A stretch of DNA of 64,000 nt from Nitrosopumilus sp. (GTDB lineage: Archaea; Thermoproteota; Nitrososphaeria; Nitrososphaerales; Nitrosopumilaceae). A model generated the notes under the pieces. The model worked only from the letters and a program-made list of their open reading frames with translations, was not told where the DNA came from and made no database searches. Shown in pieces: positions 35,153-64,000 of this stretch. The DNA lies in the NCBI GenBank assembly GCA_965207075.1, contig CBDBLO010000002.1:1888001-1952000 (forward strand). The letters are read 5' to 3'. A program made the translations under genes and the position numbers. Position 1 is the stretch's first letter; every line of letters starts with the position of its first letter.

Positions 35153-35192
35153 GCAGCATGTGCCCTCGTATGCATAAAAGGCAAGAAGAAAG

Positions 35193-35342: not shown

Positions 35343-35383
35343 TGGTTCGGGCCGCCACCCACACCCGTCTACGAAGGGAATCT

Positions 35384-41844: not shown

Positions 41845-41988
41845 ATCATTACATCAACGTGCTTCTTATTATGTTGTGCCTATCCCGTATCTGAAGGTGC
41901 CACAAAATCCTTTTGAACAAGCATGTGATACAACCGAACATGTTGCAAAGTCATTGTGCAAAACAAGAACCACGGGAGTAACAACACT

Positions 41989-43686: not shown

Positions 43687-43689
43687 GTC

Positions 43690-45588
43690 ATGGTGGACGT
43701 GTCATCACTGAATGCCAACCAGCTCAGGGCGGTCAATTGGGAGGAAGGACCCCTCTTGGTTCTTGCTGGACCTGGTTCGGGCAAGACCCGCGTTCTCGCC
43801 TACCGCATAGCGCGCCTTATGGAAGAATCTGTGGGACAGAGTTTTCGCATTCTGGGACTAACGTTTGCCAACAAAGCTGCCATGGCAATGCAAGAACGCG
43901 TCAGAGGCTTGGTTCCAAACTCGGATGAGCGGGTTCATCTTACTACATTTCACGCGTTCAGTACCGCCGTCCTGCGCCAACACGGCCACCACTTGGGTAT
44001 TCGTCCCGACTTTGCCATACTGTCACAGAAGGCAGACCGCCTAGCCGTCTTGAATAATGCCATGTCAAGAGCTGGAATGGAGCACTCGGTGAATCATGCC
44101 GACGAACACATGCTGTCTCTTGTAGCAAGAATGACAAAGAAAAACATTCCAATCGATACGAACGTTGAGTTTTTTCAAGGAGATTCCCACTACAGCGCGC
44201 AGCAGATTAAAGATGTTTACGTGCATTATCGGCAACTGATGATTGAAAACAGCGAGCTAGATTTTGATGCGCTGATAGCCGAAGCTCTGAGACTGCTCTC
44301 GAAGCCGGGCAAGGCAAACTTGATCAGGCGCATATACCCGTATATATGCGTGGATGAATTCCAAGACACCACCTTGGCGCAGTATGGTATATTGTGTAAA
44401 ATAGTTAATCCAGCCACAAAAAATCTGTTTGTTGTGGCCGACAATAACCAGACAATCTATGAGTGGCAAGGCGCCAGCTTAATGGGAATTAAATCCCTTC
44501 AGGAGGACTTTGATACAAAAATTCTCGAACTTCCAGAGAACTATCGATGCCCATCAGGAGTGGTCGAGATGGCCAACATGCTCATCGCGCACAATTCCCA
44601 CCGCATGGTGAATTCAGTTTCAAGCAAATCAGATGGCCCAGATCACATCATCCGAGTCAGAGCGTTTGATACGGCCGAAGAGGAGGCAGATTGGATTGCA
44701 AAAGATATAGCGGAGAGGCACACAGGTTCCAAGGATGGCCACGCCGTCCTTGCTAGAACGCACAAGGCTCTGGAACAAGTTGCCGTCGCGTTGAACAAGT
44801 ACGGCCTACATGGGCATTTATCCACAAACAAAAAAGAATTTACAAATGAGCGAATGGTGTGGCTGCATTCCATTCTGAGACTGGCAAACTCGAGACAGAG
44901 TGGCATCCAGCTACACAGAGTCTGCAAGTGGTTTTATACACTTGAAGGCGTAAATTTGATCATGAGTGATGTACTATCTGAAGCTGTAATAATTAAAGGG
45001 GACTATCTTCGTGCATGGGTGCGAGTGGCGCTACAAAAGGATCTAGATTCGACCACAAGAATGTTTTTGCAGACATCGATGCCCAAACTGGCTGACAATC
45101 TAGATGTTCAAAATTTTGTACAAGATTGCTTCGAATGGTTTGAGCGTAGACAGGAAGCTAATCCAGATCCTGACTATGAGACCGATTACAAAGAAGAGAG
45201 AGACATCTGGGATGCACTAGTACATGAAGCCGTAGGTAATATTGGACGCGAGCAGGTGACATTAAGCGCATTGTTGCAACATATTGATCTCTGTCCTAAA
45301 GCGCCACCGATGCCGGCGGGAGCTATACCCTGTTACACAATACATGCTTCTAAGGGTATGGAATTTAATCATGTATACCTGATCCGATTGGCCGAAGACG
45401 AACTACCCAGCTGGCAGGCTGTTAAAGAAGGAGACGAAAGCAATCAAATGCAAGAGGAGAGGAGAGTTTGTTTTGTTGCTATCACTCGTACACACAAGAG
45501 TCTGACGCTTACTTACCCGCTTAGTATATCCGATCGTGAAAGAAAACCATCTCGGTTTCTATCGGAGATGGGCATAGGACAATCTTAA
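43690..45588 (+). CDS. UvrD/Rep-family helicase (GajB-like partner)
   Basis: AGPGSGKT, VDEFQD, ENYRC, TIHASKGMEF and EERRVCFVAITR. Confidence 0.92.
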   Translation: MVDVSSLNANQLRAVNWEEGPLLVLAGPGSGKTRVLAYRIARLMEESVGQSFRILGLTFANKAAMAMQERVRGLVPNSDERVHLTTFHAFSTAVLRQHGHHLGIRPDFAILSQKADRLAVLNNAMSRAGMEHSVNHADEHMLSLVARMTKKNIPIDTNVEFFQGDSHYSAQQIKDVYVHYRQLMIENSELDFDALIAEALRLLSKPGKANLIRRIYPYICVDEFQDTTLAQYGILCKIVNPATKNLFVVADNNQTIYEWQGASLMGIKSLQEDFDTKILELPENYRCPSGVVEMANMLIAHNSHRMVNSVSSKSDGPDHIIRVRAFDTAEEEADWIAKDIAERHTGSKDGHAVLARTHKALEQVAVALNKYGLHGHLSTNKKEFTNERMVWLHSILRLANSRQSGIQLHRVCKWFYTLEGVNLIMSDVLSEAVIIKGDYLRAWVRVALQKDLDSTTRMFLQTSMPKLADNLDVQNFVQDCFEWFERRQEANPDPDYETDYKEERDIWDALVHEAVGNIGREQVTLSALLQHIDLCPKAPPMPAGAIPCYTIHASKGMEFNHVYLIRLAEDELPSWQAVKEGDESNQMQEERRVCFVAITRTHKSLTLTYPLSISDRERKPSRFLSEMGIGQS

Positions 45589-46489: not shown

Positions 46490-47023
46490 GTAGTTACAGC
46501 TTAATGCTCCTGTTGTATACCTTGCAGAAATATCCCTTCAACACAGTGAACTCAAGTATTACCCCGGAATTACGGATCGAAGCATTAATTAATAGTACTA
46601 CCGTACTATAACTAAGAGCTTAAAATTAGTACCGTATTGGGACGGTTCCCTTTAGACCCGCAATCATCCTTTGCGAGTCGATTTCAGCTCGAATTTTGCC
46701 CTCCGGATTCGTGCCTGTCAACATGCAGATTCGGGGCAAAGTGAGATTTAACCCTGCTGGTTGAGTTCGAGTTACTTCCAACTCAAACTCTCCAAAGCAC
46801 AGATTACCAGCGATACGAGCACCAAGCGTACGGAGCCACAATGCAGAACTCAGGGCCGTCGTAGGACCCGCAATCATAACAGGTAACCGTTTGACCCCCC
46901 ACCCACCCACTCCCCGAATCTAGATACAAGTTATGCCATACGTATCCGGATACAAGCAGAGCGATAAACGGTTACACCACATTCAACAGAGTATTTTTAA
47001 CAGTAGTGCAGATCTCGTGATCA

Positions 47024-50000
47024 TTGGATATACGACACGTTGTGTTGATGCCCATTGCCTGCGCCTTGGTCTTCTCCCTAGCCAATTATGCAGAGGCACA
47101 AACATACACCGGGGTCTTGGTGCTTGATCCAATTGCCTCCAAGATCAATACGGGAAGCACCGTGATCTTTTCCGGACAGCTAAGTACCACTTCGGGGCAC
47201 GCCATACAGGACGCAACGATCTACATCAAAGACGACGTGAGCTTTGGACGGGATGATGTTATTGGGACGCTTACGACCGACGACAACGGCGAATTCTATG
47301 GTACGTGGACCGCACAGCCACGCAGTAGCGGAGCATGGGACTTTTACGCCGAATACGAGGGCAGCTCACAAGTCACAGAGGCTCGTAGCGCAACCTACAG
47401 CGTCCAAATCTCCTCTTCCGGCTCCACGCATGTGACTCTTGACAGAATTCCCTCGTCAGTTTACGCAGGAGACTCCGTCACTTTCACCGGCACGCTTACG
47501 AGCGGCGGCTCCCCGCTATCCGGAAGGACCGTCTGGATATACGAGGACGACTTCGGGCCGGACGACCCCTTGGCGAGCGGGACGACCGACAACGCGGGAA
47601 GGTTCTCCATAAAATGGACGGCCAATGCCGGCACCGTGAATACCGGCTCTGAAGAAATCTACGCCAAATTCTTCGGAGACGGACAACACTCGGGCGACGA
47701 AAGCCCTAGGCAGACTACGAGCGTCTACGACAAGCGCGGCAGCTCCCTGACGTTGGATCCGATACCGAACCGGGTATACGCCGGCGATACGGTCACCTTC
47801 ACCGGCACGCTTACGGGCGGCGGCTCCCCGTTATCCGGAAGGACCGTCGCGATATACGACGACGACACGCTCAGACCCGACGATTACTTGGCGCGCGGGA
47901 CGACCGACAATGCCGGAAGGTTCTCCATAGACTGGAAGGTCGAGGCGGGTACCGTGGAGATCGAATTTGACATCTACGCCGAATTCGACGGGGACGGGAA
48001 ATACTCCGACGACCAGAGCCGCAGGCAACCCATGAATGTCTACAAGCGCGGCGGCTCCCTGACGTTGGATCCGATACAGACCTCGGCCGCGCTCGGCGAG
48101 GCGATTCCGCTCTCCGGCACGCTGATGCTGGACGGCCGCAGTCCGGAAGGGTCCATCGTCTACATCAAGGACGACGACACGCTGGGATTTGACGACCTGC
48201 TCGCCACCGCATACGTAGATTCGTCAGGACGCTTTGCGACATACTGGATAGTGGAGGATGTGGATACTTTTGACTATACGATCGAGATACAAGCCGTCTT
48301 TGAGGGAGACGACCTGTACCGCAGGCTGGCAACCCCCATTGAGGAGCTGGACATCGACCCGCTGGCACCGGCCCCAGGCCCCACCGACCCGCTGGCACCG
48401 GCCCCAGGCCCCACCGAAGGCGAAGGTTACATGGAACTCTACTACTCGCTGGACTTTGAACGGGCCCCTCGCATGCTGATAGTGCCCAGCCCATACTCGT
48501 ATGATGAAGTAAGGGAGTACATCTACCCTGTCCGAGAGGGCATACAGCTGCTCACCAGTATGTTGGAGCAGGAGTACGGCGACGGGAACTGGAACGTAGG
48601 GGTCGAGGTGGTAGCGCCGGGGGAACGTACGACCCACAAGCCCGATATCATAGTCAATGTGGTTACAAGTGACGACGACTATGAGTGCCGTGACACTGTG
48701 TTGGGTTACGCTCTCCTCACTGGCCATAAACCTGTGCAGGCCGCCGTCTGCTACAAAGACGGCCGGACCAACAAGGACGTTGAGGCAACGGCCGTACACG
48801 AGTTCATACACGCCGTCGGTGTGGGGCACACGTTCAACATAAGAGGGGACAGGATGTGTAGCGTGGAGGATGGTGTTCCCACCTGCCCCGACTTGAGATC
48901 TAGATCCAAAACGCCCTCGGGCCTCAACCTTGCCGCCATCGTGGCCATATATGGGACGGACGGATTTCAAAACCCGAACAATAACCACGTCAGTTGGGGA
49001 GAAAAGCTAACCGTGGCCGACTACCGAAGCAACAAGCACCTAAGCTCATTGCAGAACCAAAACTCTCCGGCAGCCGTTACCGGGTTTGATGCTACCCCCA
49101 CCGCGCCGATCGGCGCACCGATGCCTCCGCTTGAGAGGGTTTTTGTCCCGGACCTGTGGATAATGGACGTCTCCGGAAACGCCCTTGACACCATATCCAC
49201 GAACCAACAGGTACAGATCGCGTCTGGCCTGACCAATCGTCAGGACCGCACGCAGACGTTCGTCTACCTTGTCCAGATCTCGGACTCCGACGGAATCACC
49301 ATGGCCCTAGCAGGGATCTCTGGCACGCTAGAAGCTGGGCAGACGCTCCGTCCCTCGGTATCATGGGTACCTACCGAAGCAGGCACGTATAGCGCCACGG
49401 CGTTCGTGTGGGAGTCGGCCGACAATCCGGCCGCGCTGTCACCGCCTGTAACATCCACCGTCATTGTAACTTTCCCTCCGCTGACGACTGAACCGCCTGT
49501 AACATCAGATCCGCCAGCTCCACGAGGACCAGAACCAAATCAAGACGTGCCACGGACACCAACAGATACAATAGAGCCAATGCCGGGCTCATCAACTGTG
49601 GGATGCGAGGCAACCATTGAGGGTTGCTCAATACCCGGGATATTGACCGTGGATCCTGGAACCGCCATAACATTCATGAACACCGACGATGCGGCCCACA
49701 CGCTTACTGCCGGTACAGCGATAGACGGACTCAGCGGTACGTTTGACAGTGGGCTTGTTATGCCGGGCGGGTCATACACATTCAGCCTTGACTCCTCAGG
49801 TACATACGATTGGTACTGTCTAGTGCATCCTTGGCGCACGGGACAGATCATAGTAGGAGATCCGCCAGCTCCACGAGGACCAGAACCAAATCAAGACGTG
49901 CCACGGACACCAACAGATACAATAGAGCCAATGCCGGGCTCATCAACTGTGGGATGCGAGGCAACCATTGAGGGTTGCTCAATACCCGGGATATTGACCG

Positions 50001-50563
50001 TGGATCCTGGAACCGCCATAACATTCATGAACACCGACGATGCGGCCCACACGCTTACTGCCGGTACAGCGATAGACGGACTCAGCGGTACGTTTGACAG
50101 TGGGCTTGTTATGCCGGGCGGGTCATACACATTCAGCCTTGACTCCTCAGGTACATACGATTGGTACTGTCTAGTGCATCCTTGGCGCACGGGACAGATC
50201 ATAGTAGGAGATCCGCCAGCTCCACGAGGACCAGAACCAAATCAAGACGTGCCACGGACACCAACAGATACAATAGAGCCAATGCCGGGCTCATCAACTG
50301 TGGGATGCGAGGCAACCATTGAGGGTTGCTCAATACCCGGGATATTGACCGTGGATCCTGGAACCGCCATAACATTCATGAACACCGACGATGCGGCCCA
50401 CACGCTTACTGCCGGTACAGCGATAGACGGACTCAGCGGTACGTTTGACAGTGGGCTTGTTATGCCGGGCGGGTCATACACATTCAGCCTTGACTCCTCA
50501 GGTACATACGATTGGTACTGTCTAGTGCATCCTTGGCGCACGGGACAGATCATAGTGGAATAG
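47024..50563 (+). CDS. Secreted multidomain protein: Ig-like repeats, metzincin protease domain, three cupredoxin domains
   Basis: Signal peptide ending AEA; four Asp-rich beta repeats; HEFIHAVGVGH followed by a Met-turn; three AHT...YCLVHPW domains. Confidence 0.85.
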   Translation: MDIRHVVLMPIACALVFSLANYAEAQTYTGVLVLDPIASKINTGSTVIFSGQLSTTSGHAIQDATIYIKDDVSFGRDDVIGTLTTDDNGEFYGTWTAQPRSSGAWDFYAEYEGSSQVTEARSATYSVQISSSGSTHVTLDRIPSSVYAGDSVTFTGTLTSGGSPLSGRTVWIYEDDFGPDDPLASGTTDNAGRFSIKWTANAGTVNTGSEEIYAKFFGDGQHSGDESPRQTTSVYDKRGSSLTLDPIPNRVYAGDTVTFTGTLTGGGSPLSGRTVAIYDDDTLRPDDYLARGTTDNAGRFSIDWKVEAGTVEIEFDIYAEFDGDGKYSDDQSRRQPMNVYKRGGSLTLDPIQTSAALGEAIPLSGTLMLDGRSPEGSIVYIKDDDTLGFDDLLATAYVDSSGRFATYWIVEDVDTFDYTIEIQAVFEGDDLYRRLATPIEELDIDPLAPAPGPTDPLAPAPGPTEGEGYMELYYSLDFERAPRMLIVPSPYSYDEVREYIYPVREGIQLLTSMLEQEYGDGNWNVGVEVVAPGERTTHKPDIIVNVVTSDDDYECRDTVLGYALLTGHKPVQAAVCYKDGRTNKDVEATAVHEFIHAVGVGHTFNIRGDRMCSVEDGVPTCPDLRSRSKTPSGLNLAAIVAIYGTDGFQNPNNNHVSWGEKLTVADYRSNKHLSSLQNQNSPAAVTGFDATPTAPIGAPMPPLERVFVPDLWIMDVSGNALDTISTNQQVQIASGLTNRQDRTQTFVYLVQISDSDGITMALAGISGTLEAGQTLRPSVSWVPTEAGTYSATAFVWESADNPAALSPPVTSTVIVTFPPLTTEPPVTSDPPAPRGPEPNQDVPRTPTDTIEPMPGSSTVGCEATIEGCSIPGILTVDPGTAITFMNTDDAAHTLTAGTAIDGLSGTFDSGLVMPGGSYTFSLDSSGTYDWYCLVHPWRTGQIIVGDPPAPRGPEPNQDVPRTPTDTIEPMPGSSTVGCEATIEGCSIPGILTVDPGTAITFMNTDDAAHTLTAGTAIDGLSGTFDSGLVMPGGSYTFSLDSSGTYDWYCLVHPWRTGQIIVGDPPAPRGPEPNQDVPRTPTDTIEPMPGSSTVGCEATIEGCSIPGILTVDPGTAITFMNTDDAAHTLTAGTAIDGLSGTFDSGLVMPGGSYTFSLDSSGTYDWYCLVHPWRTGQIIVE
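49508..50556. repeat. Three apparently identical 351-bp tandem repeats (cupredoxin domains)
   Basis: Units start at 49508, 49859 and 50210. Confidence 0.95.
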
Positions 50564-51803: not shown

Positions 51804-52755
51804 TAGACTACGACAGGATGAGGCTTGTGGGTGCCATGTTCATCACCCCGCCGTAAAATAGCAGGTCAAGTGACGGCCTTGACAGTCATACGTAACGTGT
51901 TGACGTCATCTCCCACACGCCGACACCTGAGACCCGTCCATGTCTCATGAGCAATGAAAAAGCTGGCGCGAAGAGCCCCAAGAACAGTTTCCATGTCCAG
52001 CGAACAATCGGCAATCCAGCCGTCCCGGGGCGAGGAAGCACAGGGCCAGGAACCGACAGATGACCGGTTCACACCAAAGAGATGCTTCGGATCATCCATA
52101 AAGCGTGAACTAAGAGAAGAAAGGATGGTGCCCGAGCGTATTCTCGATTTGCCCTTCTGAAGGGTACCGCGACTATGATGGGAAATTAGCCCGTCAAAGC
52201 ACTGCTGGGTTCTCTTCGCTTGGCGGGGGTGCTCTCCTGTGGGAAGGGCGTATTCGTGTACTCGCGGTTCAAATCCTACCCTCGGCGCCGCGTTCCACCA
52301 CCGGCTCTGATATTTTCCGAACCAGATCTGTCGTCACTCGATACATGACAGCCAAACCTCCTTGCCGATCCCATCATGACCCGGCCGGCCGTACGGTCTG
52401 GATCCTTGGGAGCGCACGGGTTGGCTCCGGACGAGACCCAAGGGAGCGCGGGTCGCTAGACTGAACACGCCGGATCGGACAATGCCCGCGTGAATGTCGT
52501 TGTTGCGCCCGTGAGTGGCCGGGGGGAGTGGGGAGAACGGGAGGCCGAAAAATCAGAGCCTCGTAGTTTTTCGCGCATGATCATGTGGATGTTGCCTATG
52601 CTGCCGGTTCCGATACCGTGGCCCCCAAAGGTCTTTCTGGATGCCGTCGCCAAGGCCAAGGCTCGTCGCGGAGGCCGATGCGGGATGAAGCCTGTTGACC
52701 CCGTTGGCTTGGTGTGGTTTTTCGCGGGCAGTCGGGACGATAGCCCCGACTGTAT

Positions 52756-52847
52756 GGTGGGAGGGGGCCGCCGCTAGGCGGCCCCCGTGATCTTCTGGGT
52801 TGTGTGTGAGTTGGTTCGTTTTGTTAGTCTATGAGCAAATGCGAGTC
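52756..52847. other. Conserved non-coding segment with GC hairpin (copy 2)
   Basis: GGGGGCCGCC-GCTA-GGCGGCCCCC at 52763-52786. Confidence 0.6.
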
Positions 52848-52918
52848 CGGTTGACAGCATAGATGGACATGAAGTGTCGATCTAGGATAACCAAAGTGAA
52901 TAATATGCATATGCCATA

Positions 52919-53038
52919 TGCATATCATGCATTATAGACATGCATGTTATGCATGCCCGAAGACCTTGAAAGTGCATATCATGCATGCCACAGATGCATA
53001 TCATGCACGTAAGATTGGCGGGACATGCATATCATGCA
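52919..53038. promoter_or_regulatory. Phased TGCATATCATGCA box array (copy 2)
   Basis: Boxes at 52919, 52941 (variant), 52973, 52995 and 53026. Confidence 0.8.
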
Positions 53039-53078
53039 CTTTTTTCTTGCCTTTTATGCATACGCGGGCCCATACTGC

Positions 53079-53426
53079 ATGGAACTGGAGGACATGCAGA
53101 GAAAGGTGCAGTTCCGGCAGGGCTCCTATATGGTGACCATCCCGCTCCAGATAGTCCACGCGCTTGGGATACGCAGGAACCAATACGTCCGGTTTGCCGT
53201 ATCAAAGAACAAGGTCATCATAAAGCCCGTCGAGGCGAGCATCACTAAGAAAGACGTGACGGAGGCAGACAGGGATTCTGCCGCGCTTGACAAGTACGAC
53301 GGGCCTCGGGCGGCGGATAACGAGGATGCCGGCTACATGGACGCTCTTGAAGAAGCCCTGTCTAAAAACAGGCCAGATGGCAACGGCGGCGCCAGCAGCC
53401 GCATGGAAAAGCTCAGGATGAGATGA
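53079..53426 (+). CDS. AbrB/MazE/SpoVT-fold DNA-binding protein (copy 2)
   Basis: N-terminal domain near-identical to 34814-35152; CTTTTATG box at 53051. Confidence 0.88.
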   Translation: MELEDMQRKVQFRQGSYMVTIPLQIVHALGIRRNQYVRFAVSKNKVIIKPVEASITKKDVTEADRDSAALDKYDGPRAADNEDAGYMDALEEALSKNRPDGNGGASSRMEKLRMR

Positions 53427-56400
53427 CTATCACAAAGACTCTCTTTTTTTGCTCCTCGTCTAGCCGGGCCCTGATGTCCTTTATCCGGGGGCTCTTGGAC
53501 CAGACGTGGCACTCGGCAAAGCCCATCTTGGCCCACTTTGTCATGTTGTACCTGACGTGCTCCGGGTGGCTCTGGACCTCGCTTACGGACTCGATCTCCA
53601 CCGATATCGGGGCCTCCTTGTCGTAATCGTACGCGACCAGGTCGGTCCGGTCGGTGCCCTTTTTGATGCGCTGCGACGCCATGGCCACGAACAGGCCCTG
53701 CTTGAGGTACGCCGCAACCGCCTTTTGCGCCACCTCCTCAACGTCTGATGCCGTGCCCACCTCCGTGTGGTCAAACTCAAAGTATGCCTTCACCGCTTTT
53801 TTTGACAGGATATATGGCGACGTGCGCACCGTGCCTGCGCGCTCGACCAGTCCCCTGCCTTCCATGTCCCGGAGGGCGGAGGCCACCTCGTCGCGGTTCT
53901 GTACCTGCAGATGGTCTGCAAGCTGTCCCTGCTGCATGTCCTCGTTTTTTAGTAGGCGCATGATTCCCCACTCCAGCCTGGAGGGCAGCTCAACTGTTAT
54001 GCTCTCAAGCCACCTGCTCTTCTCGCGGGCCGCCTGCGCCATGGCGTTTGGGCCCACGACACCGGCGCCGTACTTGGCCAGCTGCGCCTTGACATACCTG
54101 TCGTATTCCGCGTCCGTGACTATCATGTCTGGGGGCCTGGCAAGCCAGAACTGGACGGGCGGGGGCTGCTCCTGCCCCGGTGGCGCTTTCTCGCGCATGG
54201 TCCAGTGGAAGTACTCCTGGCTTGAGAGCTGCTGCTGCAGCGCCTTTTGGAACTGTGGATCCCAGATCTGCGCGATGCGGGAGGCATCCTTGCCGTTGAC
54301 CCTGCCCACCATCTGCGTGCCCGAGTTGCCCGTGATGAGCCCCAGCTGCTTGTCGCTGATCTGCTCGGTGGTCTGGTGTGACAGCACGAGCCCCAGCCCC
54401 AGAGACCTTGCCTGCTCGAGCATCAGCTGCAGCACCTGCAGATCCTTTACAATCTGGAACTCGTCGAGCGCGAGCACCACCTGCGTGCGCTCCGACTCGT
54501 CGGGCGTGCGGTTGGCGCGCTCCTGTATGGTGAACCACAGCTTCAGTATGAACGCCTGCATCGCCAGCGGCTGCACGTGGTGGGGAAGGTTCAGCGGCGA
54601 TATCCTGACAACGGTCTGGCGCCCCGGCTTGATCAGCTCGGCAAAATCCACCGTGCCCTGTCTTACCGAGAACATGCGCCGGAGTACGGGATCGGTTGCA
54701 AACTGCTCTATGCGGTTGAGCAGCGGCATGAACGCGTCGCCCTTGAGGGTGGCGATGCTGTCGAGCGCCTGCCTCATCTCGGGCTCTGGGGTGCCGTACG
54801 CCTGTATGATCTCGGGCATGGCCTGCTGCCCGCTGTCCTGGAGCCTGAGTATGATGTGGTGTATGTCAAGGAACGTGGGCGCGTCGTGCCTTACGTATAT
54901 GTAAAACAAGAGGGCGCGGAAGATGCGCTCCATCTGCACGTAGCTTGCAGACTGCTGGTACCACTCCTCTATCGTCTTCATGAAGTATCCGACGTGCCTG
55001 GACACGACCTCCTCGCGCTCCCACGGCGAGTGCGCGGGCAGCTCCAGCGGGTTTATCGAAAACTTGGTCTGCTGCGGGTCCAGAAAGTGGACGCGCCCCC
55101 CGGACACGGAGCCGGCGCCGCACTGCCTGACGAACTTGTGGGAGTCGTCCCCCTTCGGATCCACGTATATGAACGCGTTGCACGCGGTCCCGTTCTCATT
55201 CCACGCCTCCAGGTGCTTTGCGATGACCCTGATCAGCGAGGTCTTGCCGGAGCCGGACGCGCCGACCGCATACACGTGGGTGGCGAAGTCCGCGGGCGAT
55301 ATCACCGCGGCGTCCGCGTCCTTGGAGGGAACCGCGGCGCCCCATGTCTCGCTCCAGTCAAATCCTGCCGGCTTGGGCCTGAAGAACCCCAGCGGCGCGC
55401 CCGCCTTTGCAGACGATTTCGAGGGGATTGTAACGCCTCTCGTGGCCTCTAGGTTCGGGATGTCCACCGGATCCGGCAGGTGCACGAGCAGCGGGATCTC
55501 CGGCAGGTTCAGTATGAGGAACGGCAGCGGCGGGCGGTCGCGGTACCCACCCAGCAGCCCCTTGTCAAAGTACCGTTTTAGCGCGGCGCCCAGCAATTTG
55601 TCGGGGTCCGGCAGCAGCCTGCGCCCGAACACGTCCATGCGCGGGCACCGCTCCTCGCTGTCAGTTATGCGGACCTCCACCCTCCTTGGCTTTTTCTCGT
55701 CCCAGAAATCCCGGTTCCTGTATGGAAACTTGGTCAGGTGCTCGTGCCCCGAGAACACGTTCTCCACCGGGAGGGACTCGATCTCGTCAAAGTTGAGGTT
55801 GATCTCGCGGTCTCCCCTTATGATGCCCCGGACGCTCATTATTACCTGGGCGGACTGCGTCTTGAGCGTGGCGTGCTTTTGGAGACCCGCGTAGTTGTTG
55901 GCAAAGTCGTACCCCAGCTCCGGGTGGTCGTGCGGCTTTTTGTCCGAAAGCGTGATGAGCTCGGCCGTGCTGAGGTAGTTGCCCCGCTTGATCTCAAGCG
56001 ATCTGGCGTCGAGGCGGCCCACGTGCCCGCGCAGAAAGGAGTCAAAGGAGTGGCGCCTGAACACGAACTGTATCCAGGCGCTCCTGGACAGCTGGGTCAG
56101 CCTTGCCACCCTGCTCATGAGGTGGTGCGCCCTGGCCCTGTCAAAGACGGTCGAGTAGTGCCCGTGGCGCGTGCCCACGTCGAATATCTGGCAGTCCGGC
56201 CCCGGCGGCCCGAACCAGTCCGGCTCGGTCTTCCCCATTGCGGAGAATGACGCGTTCGGGTACATGTTCAAGAACGCCTGCTTGTAGGCGTCCAGGTCGC
56301 CCTCCTCCGCCACCAGGACGAACTCCATCCTCTTCTCCACAGCATCCCACCACACCTCAAAGCTGCGGGTGCGGGTGCCGGCAAGGTCGCCTGCGGCCAG

Positions 56401-56547
56401 CACGGCCTTTTTTGCGTCCATCTCGATCGGTATCATGACCGAGCAGGCGGCCAGCCTGCCGGTCCCGGCCGCAAGGAAGTGTTTCGTGCGGTCCAGCTGC
56501 CCCTCGGGCTTTTTGCGGTTGGCCAGGCGCCAGCGTCTTGATCCCAT
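53413..56547 (-). CDS. VirD4/TrwB/HerA-like ATPase with wHTH and PD-(D/E)xK-like domain (copy 2)
   Basis: Full-length close paralogue of 31690-34827. Confidence 0.82.
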   Translation of the reverse strand: MGSRRWRLANRKKPEGQLDRTKHFLAAGTGRLAACSVMIPIEMDAKKAVLAAGDLAGTRTRSFEVWWDAVEKRMEFVLVAEEGDLDAYKQAFLNMYPNASFSAMGKTEPDWFGPPGPDCQIFDVGTRHGHYSTVFDRARAHHLMSRVARLTQLSRSAWIQFVFRRHSFDSFLRGHVGRLDARSLEIKRGNYLSTAELITLSDKKPHDHPELGYDFANNYAGLQKHATLKTQSAQVIMSVRGIIRGDREINLNFDEIESLPVENVFSGHEHLTKFPYRNRDFWDEKKPRRVEVRITDSEERCPRMDVFGRRLLPDPDKLLGAALKRYFDKGLLGGYRDRPPLPFLILNLPEIPLLVHLPDPVDIPNLEATRGVTIPSKSSAKAGAPLGFFRPKPAGFDWSETWGAAVPSKDADAAVISPADFATHVYAVGASGSGKTSLIRVIAKHLEAWNENGTACNAFIYVDPKGDDSHKFVRQCGAGSVSGGRVHFLDPQQTKFSINPLELPAHSPWEREEVVSRHVGYFMKTIEEWYQQSASYVQMERIFRALLFYIYVRHDAPTFLDIHHIILRLQDSGQQAMPEIIQAYGTPEPEMRQALDSIATLKGDAFMPLLNRIEQFATDPVLRRMFSVRQGTVDFAELIKPGRQTVVRISPLNLPHHVQPLAMQAFILKLWFTIQERANRTPDESERTQVVLALDEFQIVKDLQVLQLMLEQARSLGLGLVLSHQTTEQISDKQLGLITGNSGTQMVGRVNGKDASRIAQIWDPQFQKALQQQLSSQEYFHWTMREKAPPGQEQPPPVQFWLARPPDMIVTDAEYDRYVKAQLAKYGAGVVGPNAMAQAAREKSRWLESITVELPSRLEWGIMRLLKNEDMQQGQLADHLQVQNRDEVASALRDMEGRGLVERAGTVRTSPYILSKKAVKAYFEFDHTEVGTASDVEEVAQKAVAAYLKQGLFVAMASQRIKKGTDRTDLVAYDYDKEAPISVEIESVSEVQSHPEHVRYNMTKWAKMGFAECHVWSKSPRIKDIRARLDEEQKKRVFVIVISS

Positions 56548-56584
56548 CAGCCGGTCACCTGTCCGTATTTCAGATGCATCGCAG

Positions 56585-57433
56585 TCACTCCACCAGCAGC
56601 TTGTAGAGGCCCGCTGCGTTGCTCATGACCGGGTCGGCCGGCACGCTGATCTTGAACCTCTTTTTGAGCCTCGACTCCAGCTCGTCGCGCACCCCCGGGA
56701 TGAGCAGCCCGCCGCCTGAAAGCACGACATCGTACGCGTGGCCGTACCCGGAGGACATGTCCGCTATCTCGTCTGCCAGGTTGCCTGCAAGCACCCTTGC
56801 GTATTTTTTGCACGTCTCCCTGCGCCGGTGCAGCAAGTCCTTGTCCAGATGCGCAAACTTGCCTATCTTGCGAGTTATGAATTCCGAGGCCCACCGGGAG
56901 CTCTCCCCGTCGATCACCTGGTTGTCCTCTATAACCACGATCTCGCTGGTTCCCTGCCCTATGGAGACCACCATGCCGGTGCTCCGGTCCATCTCGACCA
57001 GCGTCCCCACGGCCTGGGCCACCACGTCACACCGGTCCGCCGGGACGCACCTTTTGACCGTCTTGGATATGGCCTCGCGGCAGTCTGAGGCCTCGTACGG
57101 CAGGCCCACGGCCATCCTGGCCTTTTCATTGCAGTCCGCGGCGCGGCCTGCCGCGACGCGGATCCGGGACACTGCCTCCCGGATCAGCATCTCCACCTGC
57201 TTCTGGTACCTGGGATCGGGCCTCCCGCGTACGATGGGCCGCACGGTGGCCGCCCCTGCAGTATGCAGCATCTTGGTTGCCCTCTCGCCTATGGCCTCGG
57301 AATCCGCGTCGGCCCAGTCCCCGTGCGTCCTCTTGACGTACAGCGACGGGAACACAACGGAGCCGTGGTCTGAGACGCACTTTACAAAGCCGGTCCCGAT
57401 GTCAAGCCCTATCCTTAGCACGCCGTCAGACAC
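56585..57433 (-). CDS. ParM/StbA-like actin-fold ATPase (copy 2)
   Basis: Close paralogue of 30804-31652 with the same length from the equivalent start. Confidence 0.85.
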   Translation of the reverse strand: MSDGVLRIGLDIGTGFVKCVSDHGSVVFPSLYVKRTHGDWADADSEAIGERATKMLHTAGAATVRPIVRGRPDPRYQKQVEMLIREAVSRIRVAAGRAADCNEKARMAVGLPYEASDCREAISKTVKRCVPADRCDVVAQAVGTLVEMDRSTGMVVSIGQGTSEIVVIEDNQVIDGESSRWASEFITRKIGKFAHLDKDLLHRRRETCKKYARVLAGNLADEIADMSSGYGHAYDVVLSGGGLLIPGVRDELESRLKKRFKISVPADPVMSNAAGLYKLLVE

Positions 57434-57699
57434 GCGGGATGCATAAAAGGCGGATTTTTCGCAGAATGGCAACCGCCTGAGAAGCCGCGCAGAACACAAG
57501 ACGCTTCCAGCGCACACAGTTGCTTGGGCGGTACGGCATGCCAGGGTCCGTCAGACCAACTGCCAGCCAGTGATGCTCCAAGAGAACCACTCGCAACCGG
57601 GCCAAGCGAGGCCAGCTCTGGATAGTTGCTACAGGCGCCTGTCAAGACGCCGGATATACAACGATCCAAGCGTGCACGCACGACGCACAAGAGAGGTCA

Positions 57700-57975
57700 G
57701 GACCGCAGAATTCCACATGCATAGCCATCCCTCGAGCATAGCCACGCCGGGCGTCTACTACAGTTACCCGCAAACTGTCATAAAGATCTATGACAGTTTG
57801 CGGGTAACCGCCACCGCGTGCGCTAGTCATGCCGCCGCGAAAGAGATCAAGACTGCCGAATGCCCCGCGCATGGTCATCTCGCGAGCATAGCCACGCCAG
57901 ACGTCGACTATACTTACCCGCAAACTTTCATAGAGCTCTATGAAAGTTTGCGGGTAACCGCCACCGCGTGCGCCA
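57700..57975. repeat. 150-bp direct repeat (2 copies), each carrying the long palindrome
   Basis: Palindromes at 57763-57808 and 57914-57957; the latter is a perfect 44-bp palindrome. Confidence 0.92.
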
Positions 57976-58168: not shown

Positions 58169-58208
58169 TGTGAGATGGTAACAAAGATTTCTTTGTTACC
58201 ATCTCACA
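58169..58208. repeat. Second-type palindrome (19+2+19)
   Basis: TGTGAGATGGTAACAAAGA-TT-TCTTTGTTACCATCTCACA. Confidence 0.88.
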
Positions 58209-58741
58209 GTTATGGGGACGTAGGTGCGGGACTCGGGGCGATCCGTTCCGTCCAAGGCTGGGGCCCTGCCATTCCATGCCATGACGTCCTGCCATGACGT
58301 GTGGTCATACGGGACTGGTAACTTAGCGGGAGCTGGCTTCTCGTGGAAAGCGTTGGGAGCTGGCAAGGTACCGCTACAAGTTCGTGAGCTACACACAGCA
58401 GGCACAGCAGGCACAGGCACTACAGACAGGGGAAAAGGACGAGAAAGTGGGCTCCCGCTTTCATCAGAGTCAAATCCGTGGATTCGCAACGGAACACGAA
58501 TTGAGCTATATATACTCTTTCATTTAGCACTTAACTTAAATTGTTATTTCGATTAATTAATTTAGAATGGGAACAACCCGTATTAAGATTGGATCACTGG
58601 TGCTCTCGTCTGCAGAATTGGAGGCGCTTAGGACATTCCGAGACTACAAGCGCTTGCGCGACAATGCGGGCTGGCACGCCGAGAAAGTTACTTCATTGAA
58701 AGGTTTATTGGACAAGGATACTCCACTACAGAAGAAGAAGA

Positions 58742-59668
58742 ATGTCCGAATCAGAGGGAGACAATCCCAACCAAGGCGACGCCATGCCCGACATAGTTAC
58801 TACCATACAAGCACACATTGACAACATTCAAGCGACGCGCAACTCAAAGGTGTTGGTGCTGTTTTCATTTAGTCCTCTTGACGAATCAGTAGCCTTGTCC
58901 TTAAACAACGTATTGAGGAGAATGGGAAATATGGAAAAATTAGACGTCGTTCTGGAGTCTATGGGCGGAGACCTTGATTCTGCCTACAAGATGCTTCTAT
59001 TGCTCAAGTCATACGCCAAGACTGTCACAGTAATCGTTCCATTCTATGCCAAGAGTGCCGCCGCATTGATTGCATTGGGCGCTGATCAACTGCAACTGTG
59101 TCGGGCGGGTGAATTGGGACCGCTTGATCCTCAAATATTAGATACTACCTCCGATCAAATGGTTCCATCTTTTTCGATCAAGAAGATGGTTGACTTCATC
59201 ATAGATGTTGGCAACCCACTTGTACAAGTAAGTTTGGTTGACAAGCTCTCTCCCCTCCTGATTGGGGCCTACAGAGTTTCTGAAGAAACTTCAAAACAGT
59301 ATCTTCGTGAAATTTTTATGTCTAAGGAACTCAATAATGAAAAGATAGATGCACTAATCCCCGTATTTACCGAAAAACTGCTATCACATGGATACCCTAT
59401 AACTGAAAAATTTTTAGAGATGCATGGTGTACCCATAGTCAAGTTAGACGAATCAGAAGAGGCCGCATTTGCTGACATACACGCTAATCTAATCACATAC
59501 TACCGGAATGCGATGAAGAGTCGCAAGGATATGCACCTAGTACTACTAACGAATGACATGGTGTCTATAGACATAGACGGTACCAACATAACGTTTCCTT
59601 CGTATGATGTACCGCTGATCATGCAGGACAGTTCTTCCACGCAACAAGAACAAGCGCCCGAATCATAA
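58742..59668 (+). CDS. ClpP-class serine protease (SDH family)
   Basis: LESMGG, VPFYAKSAAALIALGAD, LGPLDPQ and SHGYPI motifs. Confidence 0.85.
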   Translation: MSESEGDNPNQGDAMPDIVTTIQAHIDNIQATRNSKVLVLFSFSPLDESVALSLNNVLRRMGNMEKLDVVLESMGGDLDSAYKMLLLLKSYAKTVTVIVPFYAKSAAALIALGADQLQLCRAGELGPLDPQILDTTSDQMVPSFSIKKMVDFIIDVGNPLVQVSLVDKLSPLLIGAYRVSEETSKQYLREIFMSKELNNEKIDALIPVFTEKLLSHGYPITEKFLEMHGVPIVKLDESEEAAFADIHANLITYYRNAMKSRKDMHLVLLTNDMVSIDIDGTNITFPSYDVPLIMQDSSSTQQEQAPES

Positions 59669-60040
59669 GTACACATCAATACTAGGCTAACAAATGCCCG
59701 ATTCTTGTGAATCCGGTTGCTAGACACATACTACCTACTCAAGGAGGACGTAGAGTCACTTCATCTTGACGGACAGGATAAATCGGAGTCTGGTCGTGTC
59801 AGTCAAGTTAAGTACTATGTTCTGCCTTGTCGCAGGCAGCTCGCATATGCAGAGCCATATTCCGTATACGCGTGCCCTTCAGAGAAGCCGCGCACGAGAC
59901 GTCAAGCATAGTCTGTGCGGTGGTTGGGGTGGAGGATCATGTTGGGATTGATCATGTCCGCGGCTTAGTCTCCCGCGATTACAGGAGCCCGCTCTTTGGG
60001 AAGGACGAAGGGTTGTACCACAGGCGCGCTCGCAGCCACG

Positions 60041-60493
60041 TCACGAATATTTCCGTATAATGTCGGATATGTGCATGTGGCATTTTTCATGTATGAGCGC
60101 ACGGCCCTTTCCGTAGATCTCCACCTTAGTTACGGAAAGCATTATCCGAGTCTCGTCACTAATGGATTTGGTTAAGACGATCGGAAGCACGCTTGGCCTG
60201 AGTCCCCCCAGGCAGTCTGTGCACATCTGTTCTGCGAATTTTGCGCCTGCGTTCAGTTGTTTTTGCACCTGCGTCGGGTCGACGTGTCCACTCTTAAGCT
60301 CACAGACACCCACCACGAGTTTCCCGTAGTCTGCAAACACAATGCAGTCGCACATGCTCTCTTGCTCACCAGAGCGATGTTCTTCTGCTTTTATGGCGAC
60401 GCAATGCGATCTGTCTGTCTTCAGCCCGCAATTCTGTTCCTTGCAAGATGCCTGCCACCCCCCATACTTTTCGCGTACCTGCTCAAGCGACAT
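60041..60493 (-). CDS. Small PD-(D/E)xK-like protein
   Basis: CDCIVF...VCELKS...VQKQL; 12 bp downstream of the ATPase gene. Confidence 0.65.
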   Translation of the reverse strand: MSLEQVREKYGGWQASCKEQNCGLKTDRSHCVAIKAEEHRSGEQESMCDCIVFADYGKLVVGVCELKSGHVDPTQVQKQLNAGAKFAEQMCTDCLGGLRPSVLPIVLTKSISDETRIMLSVTKVEIYGKGRALIHEKCHMHISDIIRKYS

Positions 60494-60505
60494 TTCCGCG
60501 TCCCC

Positions 60506-61993
60506 TTACGATGCGTTCTGTTCTATGATTATACGCCTGCGGTGCATCTTTTCAATCACTTTTACGAACTCGTCCAGGGATATTCCGTTGTCGACGGAGA
60601 ATTTTGTGGGCTTTGCGATGCTGCCGCCCTTGTCTGAGACTGCAAAGGTGTAGGGGGCCACCTCGTCCTCCAGCAGGTAGTCGTCCCTGTCAAAGCCGAG
60701 TTTCTTGCTTGTGGCCGCGTTGTCCTTGCCGCTCATTAAGAATTGGCTCAGTAGGCTCTGTACGAAAAAACTGTGCGTCGTGATCAGCACGTTGAGTCCT
60801 TTCCGTATCATCTTTACTATGTGGCGGGCCAGAATCATCTGCGCCTCCGGGTGCAGGTGCGCCTCCGGTTCCTCGAGTATGACAAGGTCGCCCTCGCGGA
60901 CCACGTGCTTGAGGTACAGAACCAGGATTGCAAGCTCGGACACCGTGGAAGACGTCCGGTGCAACGATATCGCGCTGTCGTTGTGATCATACGTTATCGT
61001 AGGGAACCGGGTTCGGGCGTCTGCAGTGTGGCCGATCCTTCCGTCCAGTATGGTCTCTTCGAGGCTGCTTGCAATGTCGCTGAACGGGCCCGTGGAAGAT
61101 GGCATTTCAATGATTGACGATATAAAGTCAGATGCGGCCCCGGGCAGTGTGGGAATTGCCATTCCTTCCACTCCTGCGTACGTCGCATTGGTGACGATGC
61201 CCGAGGTAATCGCCCGGTGTCCTTGTAAAATGCCCGATCTTGCAGCGGGAAGATAGTACGAGGCTGACGGCAGCTCGTAATCCACGTACTTTGATATGGA
61301 AAGTCCGAGGCGATAAACCACTTCTAGTGCTTGCTCCTCCGGGGATTCGGTGGGATCAACCCTGATCATCGAGAGTTTGTCCGAGTTATCGTCCATGGAA
61401 ATAGTCCGCCTGCGCCCTGCGCCTTTGAACGTTATTCTTCGCTTTAACTGGATCTTGGGGCAGTTTACGGTTGCGCTCTTCTTGCTGTGTATGCGAATCT
61501 CAACTCCGTTACTGGCGGCGATCTTCACGGAGAACGATCTTTTTCCCGTTCTGACCAGTTTGTCGCTGGCGTCACCGAAATTGCGCTCAATTTCGAGTTT
61601 TAGATCTTTGGCGTCCATCTCAAAATGCCCCCGTACCATTTCCTCGATTGTGTCTCCCGGTATCTCCGTGTCTTTTCCGGCATTGATCAGGCTGGACATC
61701 TTGGCCATCATGCGCTCTACGTCGTATTGCACGCTATAGCGCCTCGCATAAGAGAAGAGGGGCATATTGCTCTTTCCAGGCGAGGCACATGTCGACACGA
61801 TGGAGTGCAGGAGTAACGCCGCATAGGATTTGCCCGAGTTGTTTGGGCCACAAAATATGGTAAGCGGTTTGAGGGAGATTGACGCTTTTGCTATGGGGCC
61901 AAAGTCGCGTATGTCCACGGTCAGGTTCAGACGCGAGGATTTCTGCCCCGTTTTACCGGACAATGCATTTGCCATACGTTGGCGCCGTGCCAT
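60506..61993 (-). CDS. ABC-type (AAA_15/AAA_21-like) ATPase
   Basis: DFGPI, GPNNSGKS, YLPAARSG, EEPEAHLHP and ITTHS motifs. Confidence 0.88.
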   Translation of the reverse strand: MARRQRMANALSGKTGQKSSRLNLTVDIRDFGPIAKASISLKPLTIFCGPNNSGKSYAALLLHSIVSTCASPGKSNMPLFSYARRYSVQYDVERMMAKMSSLINAGKDTEIPGDTIEEMVRGHFEMDAKDLKLEIERNFGDASDKLVRTGKRSFSVKIAASNGVEIRIHSKKSATVNCPKIQLKRRITFKGAGRRRTISMDDNSDKLSMIRVDPTESPEEQALEVVYRLGLSISKYVDYELPSASYYLPAARSGILQGHRAITSGIVTNATYAGVEGMAIPTLPGAASDFISSIIEMPSSTGPFSDIASSLEETILDGRIGHTADARTRFPTITYDHNDSAISLHRTSSTVSELAILVLYLKHVVREGDLVILEEPEAHLHPEAQMILARHIVKMIRKGLNVLITTHSFFVQSLLSQFLMSGKDNAATSKKLGFDRDDYLLEDEVAPYTFAVSDKGGSIAKPTKFSVDNGISLDEFVKVIEKMHRRRIIIEQNAS

Positions 61994-62053
61994 GGCGCGT
62001 ATGGATGCTGCTGTTATTTATCTTAGCGTGCGAGGCGGGACGATCCCACACCA

Positions 62054-63535: not shown

Positions 63536-63764
63536 TCTGTTCCAGCTGCGTAGCTCCGAATCCGATTTAAGGGCCGAATTGTCATCTGGGCTTCCGCCTG
63601 TCGACGGATGGGTTCTTTTTGACTTGGGGTCTGGTGTGCGGGGTTTAGCCGCCGGATCTACGGGGCGCGTCGCGCCGGGCCCCCTGCCCCGTCCTTTGTG
63701 GCGCGGGTTTGTTTTTGGCCCTGTGCTGTTGCGCTTGTCATGATTGCGCGCGTTCGCGCCAAGC

Positions 63765-63784
63765 CCCTTTAGACCCGCTACCAT
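63765..63784 (+). repeat. att copy of the tRNA-Lys 3' end
   Basis: CCCTTTAGACCCGCTACCAT matches 24275-24294 at 19 of 20 positions. Confidence 0.88.
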
Positions 63785-64000
63785 CGTTTTCGAGTCAATT
63801 TCAACGCGAACTCTGCTGTCTGGATCCGTACCTGTCAACGTGCAGATTCGGGGCAAAGTGAGATTTAACCTGCTGGTTGAGTTCGAGTTACTTTCGATTC
63901 GAACTCTCTGGGGCGTAGGTTCCGGGATTACACGCCGGACACGGCATCCGCCAATGCTTGCGATGTTCTAGATACGTTGGGAAGTCTGCATGTTACATGC

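Follow-up and report, generated by a model that had tools for sequence, protein, structure and literature searches.

A module of 4.7 kb, present in two inverted copies in a 64,000-nucleotide stretch of the genome of Nitrosopumilus sp. (GCA_965207075.1, contig CBDBLO010000002.1, positions 1,888,001 to 1,952,000; hereafter the window), was found to combine a phased array of TGCA-N5-TGCA boxes with genes for a small AbrB-fold protein, a large FtsK/HerA/VirD4-like ATPase and an actin-like protein. Judged from sequence, the module is part of a mobile-element family found in Nitrosopumilaceae and relatives. The boxes may serve both as the operator of the AbrB gene and as a centromere-like platform that couples the DNA of the element to an actin filament, in the manner of the ParMRC partition systems, and this reading is given about an even chance. 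A sequence-only reading of the window had proposed a ParMRC-like system with AbrB in the role of ParR and the array in that of parC. The arrays, the AbrB fold, the actin fold and a predicted docking of the AbrB tail on the actin agree with that proposal, while the gene layout, the additional ATPase and the integrated state of the copies seen do not.

Array, AbrB-fold protein, actin-like protein and ATPase

The two copies of the module (30765-35477 and 52756-57472) are 71-94% identical by segment. In each of them the array is followed by the AbrB gene, which is convergent with the ATPase gene and the actin-like gene on one strand. The actin gene does not adjoin the AbrB gene and lies 3.1 kb from it, beyond the convergent ATPase gene. 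The 3' ends of the AbrB and ATPase genes overlap by 14 nt (53413-53426), and an overlap of 8-14 nt was observed in all ATPase-containing modules. Synonymous divergence (dS) between the copies was 0.39-0.90, so the copies are not the result of a recent duplication. The ratio of nonsynonymous to synonymous divergence (dN/dS) of copy 1 against copy 2 was 0.12 for actin, 0.15 for the ATPase and 0.17 for AbrB, which indicates that purifying selection maintains all three genes. Coordinates are collected in Table 1.

Five exact boxes were located in copy 2, starting at 52919, 52941, 52973, 52995 and 53026, together with a box with one mismatch at 52897. In copy 1 the boxes at 35224, 35246 and 35278 are exact and those at 35193, 35300 and 35322 carry one mismatch each. 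The offsets of the boxes from the AbrB start codon were identical in the two copies (-182, -160, -138, -106, -84 and -53), resulting in a ladder of steps of 22, 22, 32, 22 and 31 bp, followed by (22) bp to a pseudo-box at -31 (53048 and 35171), which is the TATA region itself and was not counted in the sequence-only reading. The one-mismatch boxes at 52897 and 35322 form the outermost rung, at -182 in each copy. For copy 2 the box positions and the spacing of 22, 32, 22 and 31 bp had been given correctly in the sequence-only reading, all five of its boxes being exact; for copy 1 its spacing held, but only three of the six boxes are exact. The array DNA of the two copies is 71% alike, compared with 80-89% for the remaining module, yet the ladder is unchanged, as had also been claimed. 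The description of the boxes as palindromes did not hold. All boxes of copy 2 point in the same direction and are directional, and their equivalent in relatives is a 9-bp direct sub-repeat. Copy 1 contains a 22-bp tandem duplication at 35280-35342.

Ten exact boxes were observed in the window against 1.5 expected, a number reached in none of 100 shuffles. Eight of the ten lie inside the two arrays, and the other two occupy homologous positions within both ATPase genes. The whole genome contains 135 exact boxes, and at least three boxes within 60 bp of each other were found solely at these two arrays. The TATA-like element at the inner end of the array is probably the AbrB promoter, and its distance of 27 nt from the ATG implies a leaderless AbrB mRNA. 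The CCTTTTATGCAT element of the AbrB TATA region is also found 27 nt before the probable actin start, the GTG at 57421 in copy 2, which likewise follows its TATA by 27 nt.

The AbrB protein was divided into a DNA-binding domain (residues ~1-50), a variable acidic linker, a short conserved helix with the sequence GYMDALEEAL and the C-terminal SRMEKLRMR. The single sequence matched Pfam MazE_antitoxin below threshold (E 4.6e-4, 20.5 bits against a cut-off of 24.7). A profile of 22 AbrB homologues searched against the PDB matched AbrB/MazE/SpoVT chains with E-values of 2.8e-5 to 6e-4, the best match being 7d2n_E (E 2.8e-5, residues 9-56), and MazE was matched with E 5.5e-4. No ribbon-helix-helix protein was found by the same profile at E <= 1. 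The assignment of the N-terminal domain to AbrB, previously made by inspection, is supported by these matches. The homologue family comprises 69 database clusters. PF04014 was precomputed on 16 of them, and the named clusters are AbrB/MazE/SpoVT or hypothetical proteins of Nitrosopumilaceae or Thaumarchaeota. The variable acidic linker and the conserved SRMEKLRM(K/R) terminus, both described before, were recovered in alignment A2, where the tail has the consensus [S][KR][LMI]E[KR]LR[ML][KR]. The end [LMI]-E-[KR]-L-R-[ML]-[KR] is retained among AbrB proteins that are just 23-40% identical overall. The strict pattern was present in 45 of the 69 clusters, and most of the others are near variants or fragments. 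A toxin-antitoxin system of the MazE/VapB type was also considered. No toxin gene is present, there is no open reading frame (ORF) after AbrB on its strand and the 3' end of the gene overlaps the convergent ATPase gene; the toxin-antitoxin reading was rejected for lack of a toxin gene.

The actin-like protein matched the Pfam models MreB_Mbl (E 1.4e-12, 47.5 bits), ALP_N (20.2 bits against a cut-off of 26.3), Actin and FtsA at E <= 0.01. No ParM/StbA model was among the Pfam matches at this threshold, and no ParM was found by phmmer against the PDB at E <= 1. The C-terminal 70 residues matched PHROG 691, annotated as partition protein (E 1.4e-11), and the rest of the protein is without this match. 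A weak NCBIfam match to salactin was obtained (E 0.0044, 16 bits against a cut-off of 400). The AlphaFold2 (AF2) model of the protein had a predicted local distance difference test score (pLDDT) of 93 and a predicted template modelling score (pTM) of 0.89. Its best Foldseek matches were MreB, MamK and actin (E 1e-16 to 1e-13). Alignment with VIA-align gave Z-scores of 20-26, with 25.6 for BeeR, 25.5 for MreB, 24.3 for Dh-cParM1, 22.9 for pCBH ParM and 20.5 for R1 ParM, and crenactin, actin and Ta0583 within this range; AlfA scored 18.2. The nearest structures are filament formers, and the actin fold of the proposed motor is well supported by the model and its structural matches. The phosphate-1 motif DIGTGFVK and the adenosine motif SGGGLL are invariant in the actin alignment, and the phosphate-2 loop reads SIGQGT. 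The family is represented by 55 clusters at E <= 1e-30 among 1.84 billion representatives. The actin alignment was made without L039 and L044, which contain stop codons. L026 and L031, which have partial actins, and L020, the AbrB of which is identical to the L017c AbrB, were left out of the alignments.

A contact between the actin and the C-terminus of AbrB, as suggested in the sequence-only reading, was also obtained in a predicted complex. The actin was modelled with AbrB residues 76-115, each with its own alignment, in three runs and with three controls. The score of the tail-actin pair was 0.76 (0.69, 0.77 and 0.76 in the runs) and that of the best control 0.01. The mark used for the score was reached by 58 of 80 solved complexes and by 2 of 110 mismatched pairs in the benchmark. 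At least 96% of contacts agreed between runs, and the pLDDT of the partner was at least 55. The AbrB contacts are residues 107-109 and 111-115, centred on M109 and L112, and the rest of the peptide does not touch the actin. The actin contacts (residues 107-118, 135-150, 167-172 and 278-281) correspond, by the secondary structure of the model, to the cleft of IA, hinge helix and IIA, and to the C-terminal helix. The AbrB tail is predicted to dock in the IA/IIA cleft of the actin. The same cleft is the site of the ParR C-terminal helix on ParM and of many actin-binding proteins on actin.

The large ATPase with its winged helix, which is also part of the module, was not considered in the sequence-only reading. 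The ATPase matched Pfam TrwB_AAD_bind with 27.2 bits against a cut-off of 20.5 (residues 423-732), and TraG-D_C and MarR_2 below cut-off. The Walker A sequence GASGSGKT is present in the translation. NCBIfam VirD4-like was matched with 23.6 bits against a cut-off of 250. The PADLOC model mad8 was matched with E 7.5e-15, covering the P-loop region (422-755) alone; MAD7 and MAD8 of the MADS defence system are described in the MADS papers as an ATPase-nuclease module. Residues ~850-925 form a MarR-like winged helix with structural matches of Z ~11. The model of the whole ATPase was poor (pLDDT 42.8), and the winged helix is the one part with a structural assignment. The N-terminal ~400 amino acids and the last domain (~950-1044) are without family assignment, and an Atlas lead to DUF8128 (score 0.91) was unconfirmed by Pfam. 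L016 was not included in the ATPase alignment because of stop codons in the stretch.

Table 1. Positions of the features discussed (window coordinates unless a locus is named)
Feature	Position	Strand	Description
Iteron array, copy 2	52897-53038	+	six boxes; proposed AbrB-binding, centromere-like array and operator
Promoter-proximal pseudo-box	53048-53060	+	overlaps TATA element TTTTAT (53052-53057), 27 nt before ATG
AbrB gene, copy 2	53079-53426	+	115 amino acids, AbrB/MazE-fold
ATPase gene, copy 2	53413-56547	-	1044 amino acids, FtsK/HerA/VirD4-like P-loop ATPase
Actin-like gene, copy 2	56585-57433	-	~278-282 amino acids; probable start GTG 57421; longest ORF to 57517
Array, copy 1	35171-35334	-	six boxes and TATA pseudo-box at 35171; mirrors the copy 2 ladder
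AbrB gene, copy 1	34814-35152	-	112 amino acids, ends SRMEKLRMK
ATPase gene, copy 1	31690-34827	+	1045 amino acids, 88% amino acid identity to copy 2; same Pfam matches
Actin-like gene, copy 1	30804-31652	+	91% amino acid identity to copy 2
Hairpins A and B, copy 2	52729-52785	+	A 52729-52752, B 52764-52785; GC-rich; outer edge of module copy 2
Conserved non-coding motif, copy 2	52813-52845	+	GGTTCGTTTTGT...GAGCAAATGCGAG; ~33 nt, between hairpins and array
Motif and hairpin B, copy 1	35387-35470	-	motif 35387-35418, hairpin B 35447-35470; arm I6, 94% complementary
Proposed attachment (att) junction	46647-46661	+	repeat of the last 15 nt of tRNA-Lys, between two tandem elements
Mini-A gene	L012:2342-3253
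Mini-A gene	L013:9093-9944
Mini-A gene	L014:8573-9433
Mini-A gene	L015:5666-6535
Mini-A gene	L025:10862-11734
Mini-A gene	L027:806-1684
Mini-A gene	L030:8744-9691

Other copies and relatives of the module

The source genome (2.23 Mb, 60% G+C) has four copies of the actin gene and six of the AbrB gene. The gene order of the window modules recurs in modules M3 and M4, with the ATPase in two ORFs. XA (~2063166-2063866) and XB (~2134208-2134908, G000:C2) are AbrB genes without actin. A scan of relatives, with one genome per species, identified 34 loci, all in Thaumarchaeota and mostly in Nitrosopumilaceae. A long-tailed AbrB was found near the actin in 16 of the 22 loci with an actin at least 53% identical; of the six others, five end at a contig edge before the expected place and one has a truncated actin. 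The complete order of actin, ATPase and AbrB was present in 12 relative loci. Two orphan AbrB genes, L017a and L017b, were found at L017:1743-2432 and 3315-3968. The orphan copies of AbrB with an array are perhaps decayed modules, or pairs with an independent life.

An iteron array was found upstream of AbrB in each of the 16 ATPase-containing modules (M1-M4 and 12 Nitrosopumilaceae loci), so the absence of boxes beside homologous modules, which would have told against the sequence-only reading, was not observed. The arrays are 100-270 bp long and stop 28-40 nt short of the AbrB ATG at a TATA-like element, adjoining a probably leaderless promoter. TGCA boxes with a 22/22/32/22 core are shared by L011, L012, L013, L014 and L017a; the last step measures 43 bp in L017a and 30-32 bp in the other four. 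The repeats of the other modules are unrelated in sequence; for example, M3 has eight units of 33 bp and M4 has 4.7, the L040 array consists of 5.8 units with a length of 32 bp, and the units of L021 and L022 are 22 bp long. Many units hold a 9-bp direct sub-repeat, which matches the 9-bp offset between the two TGCA half-sites. Among 11 array sequence types the period was within 1 bp of a multiple of 11 in 10 (binomial estimate P = 1.2e-5, or 5e-4 with related types merged), and periods near multiples of 11 bp fit proteins that stack along a single face of the helix. Where the iteron sequence differs between modules, the variable residues in the N-terminal hairpin of AbrB differ as well. An FRQGS head goes with TGCA-type half-sites at a distance of 9 bp, and this holds even for the distant L027 and L030. 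Such covariation would be expected if each AbrB reads its own array, to which it is proposed to bind.

Four loci (L015, L025, L027 and L030) have actin and AbrB and no ATPase. In L027 and L030 a 9-bp unit is repeated just 2.7 times, and TRF detected no array beside the gene in L015 or L025. The tail is shortened in three of these four modules; that of L025 is more divergent and ends in ...SGYRL. Two more tandem arrays, one with 13 units of 15 bp and one with 4.3 units of 44 bp, were noted at L030:7553-8030, 350-880 bp upstream of AbrB and unrelated to the 9-bp operator. Each of the four loci has a Mini-A topoisomerase-like gene (PHROG 6247, E 7e-91), and L030 also has a recombinase of the Phage_integrase family. 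In L012, L013 and L014 Mini-A lies directly upstream of actin, with the ATPase also present. Mini-A (Topo VI A-like, with an xWELDAL motif) thereby adjoins actin in seven loci, often near a tyrosine recombinase. It has been described as virus-associated, and is here a backbone gene of an integrated element of Thaumarchaeota.

Upstream of every array, on its outer side, a pair of hairpins and a conserved non-coding motif are present. A conserved GGTGGGAG sits between hairpins A and B. The pairing of hairpin B is preserved in the 13 modules of alignment A5, with compensatory changes at seven of the nine pairs. The stems are wholly different between lineages and still paired, and the loops are mostly G-N-N-A on the AbrB-sense strand. 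The motif was alignable in all 13 modules, with T113, A119, T121, G122, C123 and A125 invariant, and variants of it were seen by eye in M3, M4 and XA. The copy 1 counterpart of the region spans 35387-35511 on the other strand. No family was found by Rfam in 52400-53200; two sub-threshold microRNA matches (23 and 21 bits against gathering thresholds of 100 and 76) were taken as chance. Candidate roles for the region are those of a small RNA, of an insulator or terminator and of a DNA site.

Proposed coupling of array DNA to actin and competing explanations

In the proposed mechanism AbrB dimers would bind half-sites 9 bp apart, and the binding units would follow at intervals of two or three turns along one face of the DNA. 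By coating the phased array AbrB would repress its own leaderless promoter. The array complex would also act as a platform that displays many tails, each with its SRMEKLRMR helix, on long flexible acidic linkers. This C-terminal helix would dock in the hydrophobic IA/IIA cleft, on the barbed-end side, of the actin encoded by the element. An excised, episomal element would thereby be coupled to a growing filament, as ParR and parC couple a plasmid to ParM. An episomal stage of the element is inferred.

Several observations weigh against this mechanism. The ATPase-actin operon has its own TATA without iterons upstream, and AbrB forms a separate leaderless transcription unit on the plus strand, convergent with the operon on the minus strand. 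Motor and adaptor are thus not co-transcribed from an array-controlled promoter, and the autoregulated logic of a parC-parM-parR layout is absent. No free replicon was seen; every copy in the source genome is part of the chromosome, and several of the relatives were found within chromosomes of Mb scale. The presence of a long array follows that of the ATPase and not that of the actin. AbrB with an array occurs without actin in XA, L017a and L017b, and the AbrB of XB has no array. The distant actin clade L032-L044 (26-43% identity) is without long-tailed AbrB and without comparable arrays, and AbrB-like ORFs of 57-125 amino acids were found in just 6 of 12 of these loci (E 1e-5 to 8e-4); the pairing is therefore confined to the Nitrosopumilaceae-type clade. 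As to the motor, the Hsp70 nucleotide-binding domain scored Z 23.2 against the model, nearly level with the filament formers, so the fold by itself does not show polymerisation. Most actin-fold ATPases have an Asp in place of the Ser of SIGQGT. As to the tail, the final four AbrB codons also code for the ATPase C-terminus on the opposite strand, and part of the tail conservation may be an effect of this dual coding. The ParM-ParR peptide complex is a solved structure, and likeness to it may contribute to the score of the predicted complex.

The last AbrB codons and the last ATPase codons constrain each other in the tail-to-tail overlap, and ATPase-less modules are without the terminal K/R of the AbrB tail. 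In the soil-type locus L035 (7448-9934) a 205-residue winged-helix-like protein, a 365-residue protein and a TFIIB-like zinc-ribbon protein, assigned by eye, precede the actin, and a different adaptor may serve in this distant clade.

AbrB could instead be a regulator only, an autorepressor or master repressor of the element with the arrays as cooperative operators, in which case the role of the actin would be unrelated and the tail would serve oligomerisation or some other partner. An array that ends at the AbrB TATA in every module fits with such a function, and AbrB/MazE-family proteins are typically transcription regulators, as seen from the names of the matched PDB molecules. The operator-sized sites that alone are present in the ATPase-less L027 and L030, and the orphan AbrB-array copies without actin, are in line with it as well. 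However, five to eight phased units over 100-270 bp are more than autorepression needs, the tail was confidently predicted to bind the co-encoded actin and none of the controls, and AbrB is linked to actin in 16 of 22 close loci, the misses being five contig ends and one truncated actin. The regulator-only explanation is regarded as unlikely. An explanation in which the AbrB-array complex, the hairpins and the motif form a clt-, oriT- or pac-like loading site for the ATPase, with actin as an accessory, is also considered unlikely; such a site would be used when the DNA of the element is transferred, resolved or packaged. A long array accompanies the ATPase in all 16 modules that contain it and is missing or short in the four that do not, the ATPase, which includes a winged helix, shows similarity of the VirD4/TrwB and TraG-D_C kinds, and the structurally conserved hairpin and the motif adjoin the array. 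The tails of ATPase-linked AbrB proteins end in K or R and those of ATPase-less modules do not, but this terminal residue falls within the dual-coding overlap with the ATPase gene. No relaxase, VirB4 or other transfer protein was found in the subset of window ORFs scanned with Pfam and NCBIfam, and the tail persists, with actin linked, where the ATPase is absent.

The arrays, as direct repeats of 22-33 bp in tandem on a mobile element, could also be the iterons of a replication origin, with AbrB as a copy-number or initiation factor. No replication protein was identified in the elements, a place that Mini-A or the ATPase could fill. Against an origin, no Rep-family match was obtained among the scanned ORFs, several arrays (for example those of M3 and M4) are GC-rich without an AT-rich stretch alongside, the arrays always abut the AbrB promoter and the tail-actin prediction would be left unexplained; such a function appears quite improbable. 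Even less credence is given to an anti-virus module of ATPase, actin and AbrB in a defence island. The mad8 match of the ATPase and the neighbouring McrBC, OLD-plus-UvrD, DNA methyltransferase and AAA_15 ATPase genes would suggest such a module, but the match is limited to the P-loop region, actin and AbrB had no PADLOC match, the module of relatives travels with integrase and Mini-A and not with defence genes, and the iteron arrays would have no explanation. An extension of the ParMRC-like reading, a three-protein archaeal segrosome in which the AbrB-iteron complex hands the DNA to both the actin filament and the FtsK/HerA-type translocase, is put forward tentatively as an unlikely possibility.

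Host elements, known systems and implications

A tRNA-Lys gene is located at 24214-24288. Its last 15 nt (24274-24288) are repeated in the same orientation at 46647-46661, and 14 of the 15 nt recur at 63765-63779. The sequences that follow the second and third of these repeats are homologous to each other. On these grounds the stretch was read as two tandem elements of ~22 kb and ~17 kb, which suggests that two related elements are integrated at tRNA-Lys, at ~24.3-46.66 kb and 46.66-63.78 kb, with one module each. One contig of run X1 leaves the window exactly after 46661, and a short-sided contig joint runs from 58200 to 63764; both are weak hints of variation at the att sites. Neither a circular junction nor an empty site was found for the elements in Logan contigs, and the joint 45000/52756, on opposite strands, was a contig running into the copy 1 inverted repeat. 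A 600-residue ORF (62054-63856) spans the third repeat, with a faint XerA-type tyrosine-recombinase match (E 0.0013) and homologues beside other modules; its position across the repeat resembles that of the split integrase genes of archaeal elements. An excisionase or recombination directionality factor acting on the phased sites was considered and set aside, since the arrays are 6 kb and 11 kb from the att repeats.

The cargo of the elements consists largely of defence genes, located around and between the modules (27869-30684 and 35688-45588). The island contains McrC, McrB, a HATPase_c_3 protein and two N6/N4 DNA methyltransferases, as well as a Gabija-like pair in which a UvrD helicase follows an OLD-family DUF2813/TOPRIM nuclease. 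An AAA_15 ATPase (60506-61993) and an IS630-type transposase are also present. A secreted-looking protein of 1179 amino acids (47024-50563) has Ig-like and transthyretin-like repeats. Three 351-bp tandem repeats at 49507-50556 are 100% identical, and each codes for a plastocyanin/cupredoxin-like domain. In three runs 46687 is connected directly to 50570 by contigs, and the gene for the 1179-residue protein may be absent in some strains. Palindromic units of ~45 bp were found at 57763-57807 and 57914-57958, just upstream of the copy 2 actin. In four runs many contigs break off or switch at precisely 57914 and 57959, which may mark a small repeat element or a recombination hot spot.

Like the ParMRC systems of R1 and pSK41, the module combines an actin-fold motor with a small dimeric adaptor of DNA-binding type, and has direct repeats that are phased and lie at a promoter. 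The C-terminal peptide of the adaptor is predicted here to sit in the IA/IIA cleft of the motor, where that of ParR sits in ParM. Unlike in ParMRC, the adaptor of the module is of the AbrB/MazE and not the ribbon-helix-helix type, its motor falls outside the ParM/StbA family by Pfam, its genes are convergent and do not form one autoregulated operon, it has an additional 1044-residue ATPase and an archaeal host, and the copies seen were all integrated. With neither the ParM sequence family, nor the ribbon-helix-helix adaptor, nor the operon structure found, the module is not a member of ParMRC. AlfA/AlfB/parN of pLS32 and AlpC/AlpA/alpS of prophage CGP3 resemble it in that each pairs a divergent actin-like motor, carried on a mobile element, with an unrelated adaptor and short sites of repeats. 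AlfA is a small protein, as is the motor of ~280 amino acids described here. In contrast to these systems, the adaptor of the module has no sequence relation to theirs, the arrays are far longer in ATPase-containing modules and the module is known from sequence alone. AlpAC is described as prophage-encoded.

Among archaeal systems, AspA-ParB-ParA of pNOB8 and SegAB have a site-specific DNA-binding protein beside its own site and a multi-protein segrosome, as proposed for the module, but use Walker-type ParA/SegA motors where the module uses actin. Salactin, a haloarchaeal actin homologue, was proposed for DNA partitioning. It differs from the actin of the module in being chromosomal and not on a mobile element, and the match of the module protein was far below the salactin family cut-off. 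Neither an adaptor nor a centromere is known for salactin; no adaptor is named in the salactin paper, where 'ParR', 'adaptor' and 'adapter' have 0 occurrences.

FtsK- or VirD4-type ATPases are recruited to repeated DNA sites in the TraB/clt system of Streptomyces plasmids and the TraM/TraD system of F. The recruitment is either direct, by a winged helix, or mediated by a small autoregulated protein that binds both DNA and the ATPase tail. The ATPase of the module resembles these ATPases by its TrwB/TraG-D_C similarity and its winged helix. The module differs from these systems by its actin, and the scanned ORFs included no further conjugation genes.

No actin-based archaeal DNA segregation machine with an identified adaptor and centromere, no AbrB-fold adaptor and no thaumarchaeal actin module was found in the literature consulted. 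Actin, AbrB, ParM and MreB are absent from the main text of Krupovic 2019 on thaumarchaeal integrated elements, the supplementary gene tables of which could list such genes. No actin protein is mentioned in the text of Takahashi 2019 on Mini-A, where 'actin' stands for Actinobacteria; its Table S2 of archaeal contexts could list such genes.

If the ParMRC-like reading is correct, the swapped hairpin of AbrB would be a fourth fold among known centromere-binding proteins, and the solution of a peptide in the barbed-end cleft would have been reached independently with a different adaptor. The array DNA, the 115-residue protein and the 280-residue actin would make up a compact and testable three-part system. 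To our knowledge, ammonia-oxidising archaea lack genetic tools, and a possible use of the module lies in maintenance functions for vectors in these organisms. A three-protein segrosome, if true, would combine partition with the pumping or transfer of DNA, a hybrid without a described counterpart, in thaumarchaeal elements that also carry Mini-A-like genes. The ParMRC-like module itself would provide the first archaeal set of actin, adaptor and centromere.

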